Shown one piece after another: positions 10,427 to 15,525 of a DNA stretch of 64,000 nucleotides. Within the stretch, counting starts at the first letter, position 1; each line of letters starts with the position of its first letter. This DNA comes from a virus. Its lineage: Duplodnaviria; Caudoviricetes. Made by a program: the position numbers and the translations under genes. The DNA is taken from IMG/VR virus record IMGVR_UViG_3300014205_000170, positions 416,001 through 480,000 of that record; one strand, written 5' to 3'. The notes below the pieces were generated by a model. That model was not told the origin of the DNA. It searched no databases and saw only the letters and a list, made by a program, of their open reading frames with translations.

Positions 10427-11042
10427 AGAGTTTTTTACACAATATAATCAATCAAAAAATGACATTTACTTAACTAAGAAATTTGCGAATTTTTTAGTAT
10501 GTAGAAGTGATTTAGAATTGGCAAATAAAAAAACGACTTATGCAGGAAAACCAAGATATCAATATGAAAATATTTTTTTATATCCTTTTAGCATTGAGGT
10601 GGATTTTACTTTAAATGAACGTTATACTTTAAAAGAAAAAGAACGTTTATGTATTCTTACTAAAGGGAAAACTGTACATTTGATTGGAGTATATTCACAA
10701 CTTAAATGTAAGCATGGATGTCCTTCTAAAAGTTGTGCTGGTGGTGATTTTTTAACTGCCCAAAAAATTTTAAAAAAACAAAAAGGTCTTAGGGGTAATA
10801 TAGGAGATTTATTTTATTCTTTATCTGATAAAAAGTTATTTGATTTTTTTGAAACCAGAGGTTATAAATCAAAATTTAAGATTAAAACTCAACCGGATAG
10901 AATATCGTTTACAAAAAGAATTTATAATGATTCGCAAGCAAATAAAGTATATGATGATTTATATGATTTTGATACACAATACTCTCCTACTGGTAACTCC
11001 ACAAGGTTTGTTTTGATAGAAAAACAAGAAAAAGAGTTTTAA
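10419..11042 (+). CDS. hypothetical protein with C-terminal TRFVLIEK motif
   Basis: 207-aa ORF overlapping the nadD stop. Confidence 0.65.
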   Translation: MSKEFFTQYNQSKNDIYLTKKFANFLVCRSDLELANKKTTYAGKPRYQYENIFLYPFSIEVDFTLNERYTLKEKERLCILTKGKTVHLIGVYSQLKCKHGCPSKSCAGGDFLTAQKILKKQKGLRGNIGDLFYSLSDKKLFDFFETRGYKSKFKIKTQPDRISFTKRIYNDSQANKVYDDLYDFDTQYSPTGNSTRFVLIEKQEKEF

Positions 11043-11098
11043 TTTTTAAAATTTATTTGCTTGATAATCAATTAATTAAAACAAATATTCAAAATTTA

Positions 11099-11131
11099 TT
11101 TGGTTTTAATGAAACATTCGTTATATCTTTG
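11099..11131 (+). promoter_or_regulatory. Bacteroidetes primary-sigma promoter of tRNA operon 3
   Basis: TTTG-N21-TATCTTTG. Confidence 0.65.
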
Positions 11132-11204
11132 CGTATAAGTAGGAAAGAAATTTTTTGAAAAATAAAAAATTCTTACTATTTAAAATAAATAAGAGAAATC
11201 TTCA

Positions 11205-11345
11205 ATGAAACAAAGGTTCACATATACAACAAAAACTTCAACTACTTGGCCGGTTATGCCGACAACAGTGGGGGCAATTTGTATTATTATGGCCGGCGAT
11301 TATAGCCGCGATAATAAGGGTGTGTTAAACCAAGGAGTTTCATGA
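11205..11345 (+). CDS. leader peptide 3 of the large tRNA operon (MKQRFTYTTKTSTTWPVMPTTVGAICIIMAGDYSRDNKGVLNQGVS)
   Basis: uORF containing all 12 amino acids served by downstream tRNAs; GGGTGTGTTA (11318-11327) is the exact complement of TAACACACCC (11376-11385). Confidence 0.8.
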   Translation: MKQRFTYTTKTSTTWPVMPTTVGAICIIMAGDYSRDNKGVLNQGVS

Positions 11346-11381
11346 TGAATACATAAAACTTACGGAATTTAAAAATAACAC

Positions 11382-11410
11382 ACCCGGACTATAAAAAGTT
11401 CGGGTTTTTT
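11382..11410 (+). terminator. attenuator terminator 3
   Basis: ACCCGGACT/AGTTCGGGT stem plus T tract. Confidence 0.8.
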
Positions 11411-11525
11411 ATTTTCCAAAAAATTAGTCAAGCAATGACTTAAAAGTTTGCAACGTTTTTTGACATATTGGTAACATTAAAAAGGTAATTAGGAATGGTT
11501 GTGAAATAATTCCTAATTACAAAAA

Positions 11526-11601
11526 GCGGAAGTAGTATAGTGCGTCATTATATTGCATTGCCAATGCAAAGATGGGAGTTCGATTCTCCTCTTCCGCTCC
11601 A
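11526..11601 (+). tRNA. tRNA-Gly(GCC)
   Basis: TTGCA-TTGCCAA-TGCAA; encoded CCA. Confidence 0.9.
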
Positions 11602-11604
11602 CAT

Positions 11605-11679
11605 GCCGTAGTAGCTCAGTTGGTTTAGAGCATTCGTTTCATACGCGAAGGGTCACAAGTTCGAGCCTTGTCTACGGTA
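11605..11679 (+). tRNA. tRNA-CAT (elongator Met or Ile2)
   Basis: TTCGT-TTCATAC-GCGAA. Confidence 0.85.
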
Positions 11680-11692
11680 CACTAAAAAATAT

Positions 11693-11782
11693 TGCGCGGT
11701 CGACTGGAGTTAGGCTACCAGCGGGGTCTCATAAGCCCTAACCAGAAATGGAACGTGAGTTCGAGTCTCACCTGCGCTTCCA
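11693..11782 (+). tRNA. tRNA-Met(CAT), initiator-like with long variable arm
   Basis: loop CTCATAA, unpaired 1-72, encoded CCA, variable hairpin CCAGAAATGG. Confidence 0.8.
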
Positions 11783-11911
11783 ATTCGAAATTAAAAAGTT
11801 GTACAGCTTTTTAAAATTAGAAACCGTTGCTAGTCGGTATATAAAGAATGGTAGAAATACAGAGTAGATTAATTACCTACAAAATATTTTTGCAGCAACT
11901 AGCGCACATTT

Positions 11912-11985
11912 GGCCTTTTAGCTCAATTGCGAAGAGCATCTGTTTTACATGCAGAAGGTTGTCAGTTCGAGTCTGACAGAGGCTA
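11912..11985 (+). tRNA. tRNA-Val(TAC)
   Basis: loop TTTACAT. Confidence 0.9.
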
Positions 11986-11997
11986 CAAAAAATAAAT

Positions 11998-12072
11998 AGA
12001 CGCTTAGCTCAGTTGGTTTAGAGCATCGGTCTTACAAACCGAGGGTCACTGATTCGAATTCAGTAGTGTCTA
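11998..12072 (+). tRNA. tRNA-Val(TAC)
   Basis: loop CTTACAA. Confidence 0.92.
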
Positions 12073-12077
12073 CATAT

Positions 12078-12152
<75 letters not shown>

Positions 12153-12160
12153 ATTAAAAT

Positions 12161-12245
12161 ACACGGTTAGCCTAGTGGTCGATGGCATCAGTCTCCAAAA
12201 CTGACGAATTAAATTTCCGCGTGCGTTCGAATCGTACACCGTGTG
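12161..12245 (+). tRNA. tRNA-Trp(CCA) with long variable region
   Basis: TCAGT-CTCCAAA-ACTGA, G73. Confidence 0.88.
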
Positions 12246-12257
12246 CAAAAACAAAAT

Positions 12258-12340
12258 GAGAGTTTATACCGTAGGGGTAGCGGGAATGCCTGTAGAGCAT
12301 TTATCTTTCGATTCGGGTGGTTCGACTCCATCAGCTCTCA
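12258..12340 (+). tRNA. tRNA-Tyr(GTA)
   Basis: AATGC-CTGTAGA-GCATT, variable arm. Confidence 0.88.
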
Positions 12341-12426
12341 CACTTTACAATCCTGCTTATTTTATCGTCCTGATAAAATAAGTCCAAAGAAAATCTTGGT
12401 AATAGGGTCCTTGAGGATTGTAATAC

Positions 12427-12500
12427 GCAGGTAACGCATAAGTGGTGGTGCACCAGACTTCCAATCTGGAATAGAGCCGGTTCGATACCGGTTACCTGCT
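12427..12500 (+). tRNA. tRNA-Gly(TCC)
   Basis: CCAGA-CTTCCAA-TCTGG, U73. Confidence 0.88.
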
Positions 12501-12750
12501 CTTTAAAATTGTAGATTTTGAATCTTCGGACAACTTGGAAAGACAAGTATAAAAAAAGAAAAAAAAATATGAAAAATTGAAATAATTAGCTGATTAAAAA
12601 TACATTAATAATTTTATCCTTAGTGTATATAATAAACAGTAGAAACTTAAAATGTCGTATCTACGAAGATGATTATGAAACTTCTGTTTACGATTTAAAT
12701 AATAACATTCGAAGAAGAATGTTGAAGACAAAAAAGTATTTGGAAATTAT

Positions 12751-12816
12751 GCCGGAATGTGACGCGTAGATACCTGTGCAGGTATCAAAATCGGGTGAAA
12801 CCGAGTTCTGGCACCA
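12751..12816 (+). ncRNA. CCA-terminated tRNA-like mini RNA
   Basis: acceptor GCCGGAA/TTCTGGC-ACCA, hairpins GATACCT/AGGTATC and TCGG/CCGA; no anticodon loop. Confidence 0.55.
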
Positions 12817-12820
12817 ATTA

Positions 12821-12894
12821 CGGGGTGTAGCTCAGTTGCGAAGAGCGCTCGGTTTGGAGCCGAGAGGTCGCAGGTTCAAGTCCTGTTACCCCGA
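12821..12894 (+). tRNA. tRNA-Pro(TGG), A37 variant
   Basis: CTCGG-TTTGGAG-CCGAG. Confidence 0.9.
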
Positions 12895-12898
12895 CTAT

Positions 12899-12972
12899 CG
12901 AGATGTAGCTCAGTTGCGAAGAGCGCGTGCTTTGGGAGCATGAGGCCGCAGGTTCAAGTCCTGTCATCTCGA
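12899..12972 (+). tRNA. tRNA-Pro(TGG)
   Basis: loop TTTGGGA. Confidence 0.92.
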
Positions 12973-13049
12973 CAAAAAGTTTTCGGAATAAAAAAACTTC
13001 CCAAGTAATTGGGTGCTTGTTGAGACAAGCAGCAAAAAGTCCGAGCTTT

Positions 13050-13124
13050 ACTGTCTTAGCTCAATTGGTTTAGAGCTTTTGCCTGATACGCAAAGGGTTG
13101 TTGGTTCGAGTCCAATAGACAGTA
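13050..13124 (+). tRNA. tRNA-Ile(GAT)
   Basis: loop CTGATAC. Confidence 0.9.
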
Positions 13125-13129
13125 CACAT

Positions 13130-13204
13130 AGTTTCGTAGCTCAATCGCGTTAGAGCACTACACTGATAATGTAGAGGTTGGCAGTTCGAATCTGCTCGAA
13201 ACTA
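13130..13204 (+). tRNA. tRNA-Ile(GAT)
   Basis: loop CTGATAA. Confidence 0.92.
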
Positions 13205-13217
13205 CAAAAAATAAAAT

Positions 13218-13290
13218 GGTTCCGTGGTCTAATGGTTTAGGATACTTGACTGTCTATCATGGGGTGGGAGTTCGATTCTCCTCGGAACCG
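13218..13290 (+). tRNA. tRNA-Asp(GTC)
   Basis: loop CTGTCTA, G73. Confidence 0.88.
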
Positions 13291-13318
13291 CAAAACGTTG
13301 GAGAACGTAAAACTTAAT

Positions 13319-13393
13319 GGTATCGTAGTTCAGCTGCGTTAGAATGCTCCCCTGTCACGGGAGAGGTCGCCGGTTCGAGTCCGGTCGGTACCG
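13319..13393 (+). tRNA. tRNA-Asp(GTC)
   Basis: loop CTGTCAC, G73. Confidence 0.93.
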
Positions 13394-13478
13394 CTTGGAA
13401 GCCGAATGTTGCAAAGCATTCTACCTAAAGTACACGGGGTGGTGAAAACCAGCTTCTGAACGTAGTACAAAAATAAAT

Positions 13479-13553
13479 GGGACCTTAGCTCAATTGGCTT
13501 AGAGCGCTTGATTTGCATTCAAGAGGTTGTGGATTCGAGTTCCACAGGCTCCA
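13479..13553 (+). tRNA. tRNA-Ala(TGC)
   Basis: loop TTTGCAT, G3.U70. Confidence 0.92.
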
Positions 13554-13558
13554 CAAAC

Positions 13559-13619
13559 GGGGGATATGGCAAAGATGCATCGCCAGAAGTTACGGTTAAT
13601 TCTGTAGCATCCTCCACCA
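13559..13619 (+). ncRNA. anticodon-less Ala-identity tRNA-like RNA
   Basis: GGGGGAT/ATCCTCC-ACCA with G3.U70 and A73; only two further hairpins. Confidence 0.6.
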
Positions 13620-13628
13620 ACTAAAAAT

Positions 13629-13701
13629 GGGGTGTCATGTACCAAGGCTGGCGAATGTGCTTTGCAAGCACGTTGGGTGAGTTCAATTCTCATACGCTCC
13701 A
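13629..13701 (+). tRNA. tRNA-Ala(TGC), atypical D arm
   Basis: GTGC-TTTGCAA-GCAC, G3.U70. Confidence 0.8.
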
Positions 13702-13716
13702 CAAAAATTAAAGAAT

Positions 13717-13801
13717 GCCAATATCGCATAGTGGTCGATTGCACCTGATTTGTAATCAGGAACTGAATAAGACAGCGGCGGTTCGAATCCGTCTATTGGC
13801 T
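13717..13801 (+). tRNA. tRNA-Thr(TGT) with long variable arm
   Basis: CCTGA-TTTGTAA-TCAGG. Confidence 0.88.
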
Positions 13802-13805
13802 CAAA

Positions 13806-14047
13806 AAAAGTAAAACAAAGGATTCATCGCTGATTATTATTAATTTAATTAGAGGAAGTTCGCGACTGCAAAACCTAATGTAGGAGGGGGTCCTGAAAAC
13901 CGCCATTTGTACTACAGAAGCAGCAACCTAAACAGCTTAAGATTGTCGGTTTATCTATGAGAGCGGGTTAGGGCAGCCATTAGGCCATTGGAAAATGAGA
14001 TAAATGATGAGTTAAAACAAAATCGCGGCTACGCTTATTTTACTTTT
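13806..14047 (+). ncRNA. rnpB: compact RNase P RNA
   Basis: CR-I GAGGAAGTTCGCG (13852) and CR-V ACAAAATCGCGGCTA (14017) forming P4; P1 AAAAGTAAAA/TTTTACTTTT. Confidence 0.8.
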
Positions 14048-14095
14048 TTTATTTTAATATTATATTCGCCTATAGGTTAAGATAGAAAAAAAAAC

Positions 14096-14806
14096 ATGAA
14101 ATATTATGTATATATGTTATTTGATTTAGAAAATCCTTTTTATATTGGTAAAGGAACAAAAAATAGAATGTACGAACATTATAAAAGAGCTACAAAAACA
14201 AAAATAAAATCTCCTGTTTTAGATAAAATTAGAAATATCATTTTAAATAATAGACAAGTGATTTATAAAAAAATTTTTGAGTCTGATATAGAATCAAATG
14301 TTATAAAAAAAGAAATAAATACTATTTTAGAAATTGGTAGAAGAGATTTAAAAACCGGACCACTGTTGAATTTAACAGATGGTGGCGAGGGAGTAACCAA
14401 TTACATTTGGTCAAAAAAACATAAAAAAAATCTTAGTAAATCTATTAAAAAAGCAATAAAAGAAGGAAGATATAATCCTCCAGGAAATATAATTTTAAGA
14501 GAAGAAAAATACAAAAAAACAATGTCTAAAAAAATACAGGAATATTGGAATAGCGAAGAAGGTAAAAAGCATAAAAAAAGAATTTCTGTAAAAAACAAAA
14601 AAAAATTAGATGATGGAAAACGAGTACTATCAAAAAAGGCCAGACAAAAAATGAGAGAATCAGCTTTAAGAACTAATAAAATAAAAAAACAAAAATTAAA
14701 ATGGTCCCGTGGCCGAGGGGAGACGAAAGTCGATAGGCTCAGTTCTGCAAAAACTGCCACATTTGTTCAAATCAAATCGGGACCTCAACAAAATATGCCC
14801 TCGTAG
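14096..14806 (+). CDS. GIY-YIG homing endonuclease with basic NUMOD3-like C-terminus
   Basis: YYVY..PFYIGKG..R..H..E..LLNLTDGGEG; frame runs through tRNA-Cys. Confidence 0.85.
   Translation: MKYYVYMLFDLENPFYIGKGTKNRMYEHYKRATKTKIKSPVLDKIRNIILNNRQVIYKKIFESDIESNVIKKEINTILEIGRRDLKTGPLLNLTDGGEGVTNYIWSKKHKKNLSKSIKKAIKEGRYNPPGNIILREEKYKKTMSKKIQEYWNSEEGKKHKKRISVKNKKKLDDGKRVLSKKARQKMRESALRTNKIKKQKLKWSRGRGETKVDRLSSAKTATFVQIKSGPQQNMPS
14703..14785 (+). tRNA. tRNA-Cys(GCA) with hairpin inserted in the D loop
   Basis: CAGTT-CTGCAAA-AACTG, U73; GAC-GAAA-GTC in D loop. Confidence 0.8.
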
Positions 14807-14869
14807 TTCAACGGATTAGAATACTAAACTACGGATTTAGAGATGGGGATTCGAATTCCTCCGAGGGTA
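14797..14869 (+). tRNA. tRNA-Arg(ACG)
   Basis: loop CTACGGA. Confidence 0.92.
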
Positions 14870-14874
14870 CAAAA

Positions 14875-14970
14875 ACAGAAATAGTTCAGTTGGTAAAACA
14901 CCCGAATCCAAGGGACCAGACCAAGTATAAACAACTTGAAGATTCGCAGGTTCGATTCCTGCTTTCTGTT
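14875..14970 (+). ncRNA. tRNA-like RNA or pseudo-tRNA with rearranged anticodon region
   Basis: intact acceptor, D and T arms; no canonical 7-nt anticodon loop. Confidence 0.55.
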
Positions 14971-14978
14971 CTTAAAAT

Positions 14979-15051
14979 GTCCTCATAGTTCAATGGAGAA
15001 GAGCGTTCGTTTCCTAAACGAAAAATCCAGGTTCGAATCCCGGTGAGGATA
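14979..15051 (+). tRNA. tRNA-Arg(CCT)
   Basis: TTCGT-TTCCTAA-ACGAA. Confidence 0.9.
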
Positions 15052-15057
15052 CAATTG

Positions 15058-15525
15058 TTAGGTAAGATTTCTAAAAACAATTTTATTTCCCTCTCCAATT
15101 TCTCGGATAATTCCTTTCACTTTAATGTTATCAATATTTTCCCACTCTGTAATATCTTTACTTGCTGCTGGTGTTGAGTTTTTATGAAATGCTAATGTAA
15201 TATGTGGCATATCGTTTACTGAATAATATCCAAATGTTTCTACTGCAATTGCATTAGCAGATTTACCAATCGCCTTTATAATTAAAGTAACTTCTTTATT
15301 TAAGTCTCCTCTTAAATATAAACTTTCCGGAAATTCTCCGGTTTTTATTGTCATGTGAAAATTATGCGGTTTACGCCAACCTTGATTAATAGGAACGTAT
15401 TGCTGAACCAATTTTTCAATCTTAGCAATTTCAGAAGGGTCTTCAATAACCACACCAGAATAGATTACGTTCTGCTTTAGGCTTTCCATAATCATTTTCC
15501 TCACTATCTTTCTTAGATTGCTCAT
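15058..15525 (-). CDS. 2H phosphoesterase (2',3'-cyclic phosphodiesterase-like)
   Basis: two H-x-T motifs (FHMTI, PHITL). Confidence 0.75.
   Translation of the reverse strand: MSNLRKIVRKMIMESLKQNVIYSGVVIEDPSEIAKIEKLVQQYVPINQGWRKPHNFHMTIKTGEFPESLYLRGDLNKEVTLIIKAIGKSANAIAVETFGYYSVNDMPHITLAFHKNSTPAASKDITEWENIDNIKVKGIIREIGEGNKIVFRNLT

Follow-up and report, generated by a model that had tools for sequence, protein, structure and literature searches.

What decides when a phage transcribes its own tRNA genes? Phages T4 and T5 carry tRNA clusters, and huge phages carry tens of tRNA genes. The question is raised here by a locus in which a 46-codon reading frame, termed leader 3, and a terminator hairpin stand before a large tRNA array. 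The locus lies within the window, i.e., the whole 64,000-nucleotide stretch that was analyzed (bases 416001-480000 of a 518,809-bp virus sequence with terminal repeats and 30% G+C). The original prediction, made from the letters alone, read the short frame as the leader peptide of an attenuator that samples the 12 amino acids of the array. The features discussed below are collected in Table 1.

Table 1. Position of the leaders, the predicted RNA elements and the array genes. Positions are those of the window; for L055 the genome positions are given in parentheses.
Feature	Position	Strand	Description
Candidate promoter, Bacteroidota type	11099-11131	+	TTTG (11099-11102), 21-nt spacer, TATCTTTG (11124-11131)
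Leader 3 ORF	11205-11345	+	46 codons, ATG to TGA
Putative sensor core	11241-11303	+	Codons 13-33; 21 of 21 residues within the 12-amino acid set of the array; many rare G/C-ending codons
Hairpin P1	11284-11317	+	-12.6 kcal/mol; directly adjoins region 2
Region 2, putative antiterminator 5′ strand	11318-11327	+	GGGTGTGTTA; within codons 38-41
Inner hairpin, in the antiterminator loop	11330-11365	+	Predicted in nascent-RNA folds; holds the stop codon (11343-11345)
Region 3, putative antiterminator 3′ strand	11376-11385	+	TAACACACCC; the 4 nt at its 3′ end (11382-11385) also form the base of the terminator stem
Intrinsic terminator	11382-11415	+	9-pair stem and 6-nt loop (11382-11405), then T-tract; -12.9 kcal/mol
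Conserved 50-nt element	11426-11475	+	Role unknown; nearly invariant in four lineages, unique in the genome
Hairpin before the first tRNA	11485-11520	+	12 pairs, -13.8 kcal/mol; in relatives a hairpin in the same place with another sequence
Cargo	11526-15052	+	21 tRNA genes for 12 amino acids, reduced RNase P RNA candidate, GIY-YIG ORF
Reduced RNase P RNA candidate	13810-14047	+	~238 nt; specificity domain mostly missing
tRNA-Cys(GCA)	14703-14785	+	Perfect 7-bp acceptor stem, anticodon loop CTGCAAA, U73, 11-nt D-loop hairpin insert
Leader 1	3729-3818 (unit 3729-3880)	+	T/N/S/H/F codons before Phe, Ser, Asn, His and Thr tRNAs
Leader 2	6198-6269 (unit 6198-6321)	+	Five Lys codons before five tRNA-Lys genes
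Leu/Arg/Glu/Ile leader unit	L055 1827-1985 (343827-343985)		Before a tRNA array
Seven-Gln-codon leader unit	L055 4435-4575 (346435-346575)		Before a tRNA array
Val-rich leader and terminator	L055 129-260 (342129-342260)		Five Val codons; before a 450-aa class I aminoacyl-tRNA synthetase of the I/L/M/V group (ORF L055 291-1643)

The leader reading frame and the array behind it

The predicted 46-codon frame was recovered from start to stop. It lacks a Shine-Dalgarno sequence, which is normal here because the genes of this phage generally have none. An alternative genetic code was considered and rejected: under the standard code long frames already amount to 490 kb, and TGA commonly serves as a stop. 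When the translation was compared with the tRNA set, all residues from 13 to 33 proved to be drawn from the amino acids of the array, Trp and Cys included, as had been claimed. The core holds four Thr, three Ile, two each of Pro, Val, Met, Gly and Ala, and one each of Trp, Cys, Asp and Tyr. All 12 array amino acids are present upstream of region 2, and the wider sensor zone spans codons 4-36. In leader 3 as a whole Trp and Cys occur once and Asp and Tyr twice, so that sensitivity to a single tRNA may be low where its amino acid is scarce.

The 12 amino acids account for 50.7% of the residues in the long ORFs of the phage. With this composition, a run of at least 21 such residues in a random 45-mer has a probability of 2.5e-6 by simulation and ~9e-6 analytically. 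Among the 1244 six-frame ATG ORFs of 30-70 aa in the whole genome, leader 3 alone has a run of at least 17, and such a run was found in just one of 357 long ORFs.

Codon choice was also inspected. The Arg codons are AGG (codon 4) and CGC (codon 35), and the Gly codons include GGG and GGC; the tRNA calls place the matching Arg(cct), Arg(acg), Gly(tcc) and Gly(gcc) in the array, in agreement with the original prediction. The GC-rich codons are indeed unusual, each making up 4-11% of its synonymous set in the phage genome (CCG 0.10, GTG 0.11, GGG 0.06, GCC 0.09, GGC 0.09, CGC 0.04 and AGG 0.08; AGC falls within the same range). GC3 reaches 0.43 in the run vs 0.18 genome-wide, and a pooled codon-rarity test on codons 13-33 was only borderline (P = 0.06). 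Three of the leader Thr codons are ACT, whose best decoder, Thr(ggt), is encoded in another array.

The array serves G, M, V, W, Y, P, I, D, A, T, R and C. Its 21 tRNA genes comprise 19 found by ARAGORN, one found by Rfam (14875-14970) and a tRNA-Cys recovered by searching for GCA anticodon loops; this last gene completes the set of 21 tRNAs and 12 amino acids that had been proposed. ARAGORN called a Pro(agg) tRNA at 14703-14785, which we rejected: the D-loop insertion causes the miscall, and the cloverleaf and the GCA loop identify the gene as tRNA-Cys. RNAalifold, applied to the three available copies (the other two are in the related phages L002 and L013), gave a 24-pair cloverleaf in which 9 pairs show compensatory changes. 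The gene overlaps the end of the GIY-YIG endonuclease ORF call (14096-14803, + strand), which lies inside this array (array 3).

An RNase P RNA had also been placed in the array. It was missed by whole-window and whole-genome Rfam searches; when 13790-14120 was searched alone, RF00010 (bacterial RNase P RNA, class A) scored 32.2 bits (E 1.1e-8), below the gathering score of 100, with the model aligned end to end (1-367). CR-I (GAGGAAG) and CR-V are present, the candidate is kept in five other phage lineages, and all eight pairs of the P4 helix are kept in six phage sequences, five of them with compensatory changes. The claim is thus borne out as a reduced candidate. This suggests that the phage brings its own tRNA-processing ribozyme, catalysis being inferred only.

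Several other elements were observed in and around the arrays. The gene at 14875-14970 (+ strand; also in L013, 6676-6770) is tRNA-like (Rfam tRNA, 41.8 bits), lies between two Arg tRNAs, and has a 3-bp anticodon stem, an 8-nt loop with U-CCA-A and a long extra arm; it is possibly a second Trp-type or a recoding tRNA, and its identity is unresolved. An element at 11692-11790 (+ strand) resembles a cloverleaf, its variable arm being long and its anticodon loop containing CAU; it is called by neither Rfam nor ARAGORN and is absent from L002, and the ~100 nt of non-coding sequence after it (11790-11905) are kept in L002. Just past the array, on the opposite strand, is an ORF with a weak similarity to LigT-like phosphoesterases (15058-15522). 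Array 1 contains an ORF with only the catalytic core of HisRS (5064-5747, + strand), and a full-length tmRNA gene (RF00023, 104.7 bits) is located at 59621-59985 (+ strand).

Predicted RNA structures and upstream signals

A conserved promoter-like box is found 81 nt 5′ of the leader 3 ORF. Within it TATCTTTGCGT is unchanged across four homologous loci, and the same box precedes the leader 1 homologues and the tRNA cluster at 42.8 kb. We assigned it to the Bacteroidota type by the consensus that we take from the Bacteroides promoter literature; in the absence of transcription start data, a transcript from this candidate would start near 11140. The conserved TAnnTTTG-type boxes, together with genes devoid of Shine-Dalgarno sequences and with A-rich start regions, suggest a Bacteroidota-like host; the host itself being unidentified, this is an inference only. 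On the minus strand, a sigma-70-like match (11328-11299) was judged to be due to chance: promoters of this kind appear not to be used by the host type, the match is not followed by a minus-strand gene, and it is absent from leader 1; it falls within the invariant P1/region 2 stretch.

Downstream of the core, the RNA may adopt two mutually exclusive structures. The perfect 10-bp antiterminator overlapping the terminator arm, as originally predicted, was confirmed as a complementarity: GGGTGTGTTA in region 2 pairs in full with TAACACACCC in region 3, and the latter shares 4 nt with the terminator stem. The complementarity between the 3′ part of the ORF and the terminator arm exceeds that of 99.8% of shuffled sequences. 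Region 2 starts 14 nt past the last core codon and 26 nt ahead of the stop codon, and the stop codon follows region 2 by 16 nt, inside the antiterminator loop. When 11318-11406 was folded, the two states were nearly balanced (-22.9 kcal/mol for the antiterminator vs -21.6 kcal/mol for the terminator). Nascent RNA ending at 11388-11398 folds into the antiterminator with or without the upstream leader, and hence the predicted default in the absence of a ribosome is readthrough. The pairing and folding analysis of leader 3 disclosed no convincing upstream partner for region 2, i.e., no classical 1:2 anti-antiterminator.

Comparative support for these structures is uneven. GGGTGTG is invariant in 10 aligned units, and in the terminator these units differ by one compensatory change and several changes of the wobble type. 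Neither region 2 nor region 3 varies, so covariation offers no support for their pairing. The sequence GTTTCATGA of the inner hairpin is unchanged in leaders of the leader 3 type, and the 3′ arm of P1 is invariant in nucleotides among the relatives. P1, which has an analogue in leader 1 (3765-3788), is a candidate pause or timing hairpin; this role rests on folding without covariation and is not established.

Between the terminator and the first tRNA lie a conserved 50-nt element and a further hairpin. The element (11426-11475) is possibly a second promoter or an RNA element, and was a good fit to neither the sigma-70 nor the Bacteroidota promoter consensus. Together, the element and the hairpin could hold an independent promoter for the array.

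Leaders in related phages and elsewhere in the genome

Relatives were collected by pattern scans of viral and metagenome contigs (L002, L009, L013, L043 and L048, and the more distant L031 and L044). The leader-array unit is conserved in at least six phage lineages, with a leader ORF of 42-46 codons in six lineages (36 codons in the distant E-type leader). Length differences are multiples of 3 throughout, the start context, the frame and the stop are kept, and synonymous changes occur, e.g., TCA, AGT and TCT for one Ser. In L002 the neighboring protein is only 43% identical, and therefore the leader region is far better conserved. A protein search with the 46-aa peptide returned only the peptide itself, and hence its relatives escape gene callers. 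No match was obtained when the locus was compared by BLAST with 50,697 (cultured-)phage records, or when the backbone pattern was sought in 185,579 genomes of bacteria and archaea.

The two parts of the frame evolve differently. In codons 2-26 pN/pS is 0.71, and residue identity is therefore weakly constrained; codons 27-41 are almost unchanged (pS 0.11, pN 0.036), which points to a constraint on this part as RNA. Only two of the eight variable columns of the core ever leave the 12-amino acid set (one N and one Q, in two relatives), compared with 12 of 12 in the flanks (hypergeometric ~7e-4, by our own arithmetic). Leu and Phe, the commonest hydrophobic residues in this phage, are absent from the hydrophobic core of every lineage examined. 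Such a substitution pattern is the one expected for a putative composition sensor, and not for a folded or membrane peptide.

Leader content changes with array content. The E-type lineage (L031 and L044) has the same GGGTGTG/CACACCC backbone and terminator before nine tRNAs (Ala, Tyr, Gly, Trp, Pro, Ile, Arg, Thr and Cys), without Val, Met or Asp. Ahead of region 2 its leader includes all nine amino acids (P 1.6e-3) and neither Val, Met nor Asp, and it has a 12-residue run from the set of nine (P 1.3e-4); the first tRNA starts 12 nt past the T-tract. The C-type array (Gly, Met, Val, Met, Trp, Tyr, an ORF, then Gly, Pro, Ile, Asp, Ala, Thr and Cys) has no Arg tRNA, and the AGG codon is gone from its leader. 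Trp and Tyr tRNAs that appeared to be missing from relatives were recovered at a lower ARAGORN threshold. In L031 (leader ~3351-3461, tRNAs 3528-3923) the last four sensor residues, A, Y, G and W, follow the order of the first four tRNAs, Ala, Tyr, Gly and Trp, which may be due to chance.

The same genome carries four sister units (Table 1). Leader 1 shares its backbone with leader 3 (the pattern occurs twice in the window, with none expected) and has a 9-residue run from T/N/S/H/F (P 1.35e-4). Outside the window, the Leu/Arg/Glu/Ile leader precedes a matching tRNA array, and the seven-Gln-codon leader precedes four tRNA-Gln genes and a Glu/Gln-type aminoacyl-tRNA synthetase. The true assignment of the five leaders to their arrays ranks first of 120 permutations. 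The match extends to isoacceptors: leader 3 uses ATT, AGG and CGC with Ile(gat), Arg(cct) and Arg(acg), and the Leu/Arg/Glu/Ile leader uses ATA and AGA with Ile(tat) and Arg(tct). The distance from stop codon to T-tract is 49-59 nt in all five, and complementarity between the 3′ part of the ORF and the terminator arm is significant in four; the leader 2 antiterminator was not significant in the duplex test. In four sister units the first tRNA starts 6-22 nt past the T-tract, too short a distance to accommodate a promoter. Both the Lys leader and the T/N/S/H/F leader are kept in L002, L039, L020 and L036.

Both strands of the genome were scanned without bias for a small ORF, a strong terminator and complementarity; only five loci were returned, four of them before tRNA arrays and one before a class I aminoacyl-tRNA synthetase. 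The Val-rich leader before this synthetase represents the classical synthetase form of the leader design. Another phage has, directly before tRNA-Ile(tat), a terminator and a 24-codon leader that contains four AUA and several AGA/AGG codons (L034, 4096-4262).

Proposed attenuation and known systems

The conservation of the ORF, the composition of the core, the mutually exclusive structures and the tracking of arrays by leaders support, at the sequence level, the attenuator reading of the original prediction. There are no RNA or ribosome data, and we consider it likely, not established, that leader 3 is a ribosome-mediated transcription attenuator that links transcription of the array to decoding speed, the tRNAs probably being made only when ribosomes read the leader codons slowly. 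Transcription would start ~65 nt upstream of the leader ORF, and a ribosome would translate the 46 codons as RNA polymerase advances. If the ribosome were slow at any codon of the sensor zone, region 2 would be left free and would capture region 3 on its emergence; four pairs at the foot of the terminator would be lost, and the polymerase would read through into the array. A fast ribosome would reach the stop codon and unwind region 2 and the inner hairpin, which the terminating ribosome would melt since the stop codon sits inside it; the terminator would then form and the transcript would end at ~11410-11415. The net effect would be a feedback in which a shortage of the decoding capacity that the array supplies leads to its transcription.

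The transit time of the ribosome adds up from its dwell times; if any single decoding tRNA were scarce, transit would take longer, and therefore the gate would be OR-like or additive. Stalling, readthrough, OR-like integration of 12 inputs, tRNA supply (and not amino-acid supply) as the signal, and exclusive gating are all inferred. The antiterminator removes just 4 nt from the terminator stem, and with a ribosome at the stop codon region 2 lies mostly just behind the footprint, so that blocking relies on steric or kinetic arguments. Whether the gating of the array is exclusive is left open by the conserved element between the terminator and the first tRNA. As to the wider picture, we lean towards the view that a clade of large phages runs a closed-loop control of decoding capacity, in which each array, here with a viral RNase P RNA, is transcribed only on slowing at its own codons, and in which one GGGTGTG/CACACCC and terminator backbone is reprogrammed by rewriting the sensor peptide for each array.

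Two other readings would deny the ribosome its role as a sensor. The frame might encode a small functional peptide, e.g., a membrane peptide, with the hairpin as its terminator and the array under a promoter of its own in 11426-11475. A peptide kept in six lineages, with a core rich in small and hydrophobic residues, would fit such a function, and the conserved element stands where that promoter would be needed. Yet the pN/pS of the 5′ two-thirds is far from that of a typical functional protein, the hydrophobic core lacks Leu and Phe in every lineage, and a run of this kind is as rare in long ORFs as stated above. Sister leaders with seven Gln or five Lys codons cannot be membrane peptides, the E-type arrays begin too soon after the terminator (12 nt), and the element, which has no second copy in the genome, matches no promoter consensus; we find the functional-peptide explanation improbable. 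Still less credence is given to an RNA-only switch that binds a protein, a tRNA or a metabolite, with the ORF incidental. The 3′ third of the ORF (the P1 arm and region 2) is conserved in nucleotides with almost no synonymous change, and regions 2 and 3 are invariant, which speaks for such a switch. However, the frame, start context and stop are kept, with indels in multiples of 3, and the variable 5′ part follows the amino-acid set and not a structure. No Rfam family reached its threshold: the best match, Thr_leader (RF00506, at 11275-11415; 20.5 bits, E 0.21, gathering threshold 55), is itself a leader-peptide attenuator, and the other matches to the leader (MicC and ohsC) were sub-threshold as well. 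A T-box search of 11000-11560, up to E = 10, gave no match.

A third possibility keeps the translation-dependent attenuator and changes its signal, which could be starvation for amino acids, overall translation capacity or the timing of infection, with the match to the array a loose by-product. Classical leaders report aminoacylation and not tRNA abundance, the ribosome-free default is readthrough, so that any global slowdown of translation would open the gate, and some codons, such as ACT, are not best read by the tRNAs of the array itself. A generic sensor, however, needs no agreement between leader and array, and leader content follows array content in five leaders, in paralogues and across phages, down to the Ile and Arg isoacceptors. 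A signal of another kind is therefore unlikely in our judgment, though it has the strongest claim of the three.

Leader-peptide attenuators are known for trpL, hisL, leuL, thrL and pheL, and multivalent ones for the ilvGMEDA and ilvBN leaders (textbook and PMC1183508). Leader 3 resembles these amino-acid operon leaders in its short ORF, rich in regulatory codons and using rare ones, and in the exclusive terminator and antiterminator, the 5′ strand of the latter being under ribosome control; the Thr_leader match is such an architectural resemblance, not family membership. It differs from them in being encoded by a phage and in its cargo, which is tRNA genes and RNase P RNA instead of biosynthetic enzymes. 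It also has 12 amino-acid inputs as against one to three (Ile, Leu and Val in the ilv leaders), and its stop codon is inside the antiterminator loop. Unlike trp, it has no clear 1:2 anti-antiterminator, and its predicted default is readthrough.

The pheM leader of E. coli pheST attenuates an aminoacyl-tRNA synthetase, i.e., a protein gene on a bacterial chromosome, in response to one amino acid. Leader 3 would likewise be a leader-peptide attenuator over a translation component, reporting the decoding of cognate codons, but it would control the tRNAs themselves and so feed back directly on decoding capacity. T-box riboswitches, which are typical of Firmicutes, bind uncharged tRNA directly through specifier-loop and T-box motifs and have no ORF. 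They too tie tRNA status to translation-related genes by transcription attenuation, whereas the ORF of leader 3 is conserved as coding. As in known phage tRNA clusters, the arrays are interspersed with homing-endonuclease ORFs. To our knowledge, no leader-peptide attenuator has been described before a phage tRNA cluster, and no phage RNase P RNA is known; full-text literature searches found no report of either.

Leader-peptide attenuation is textbook knowledge for the control of amino-acid supply on bacterial chromosomes, with one to three inputs. Here a virus appears to apply the same principle to the supply of tRNAs, and to do so through a single leader that has twelve inputs. Were this so, it would answer how and when huge phages express large tRNA sets, and would mean that the transcription of tRNA genes can be fed back from decoding speed. 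The closed loop would restore decoding when host tRNAs run short or are destroyed, e.g., by tRNA-cleaving defence nucleases, and it would offer a natural, modular sensor of codon speed with its specificity written in a short peptide. The principle is known; what is new is the cargo, the setting in a virus, a sensor with 12 inputs and a backbone that can be reprogrammed.
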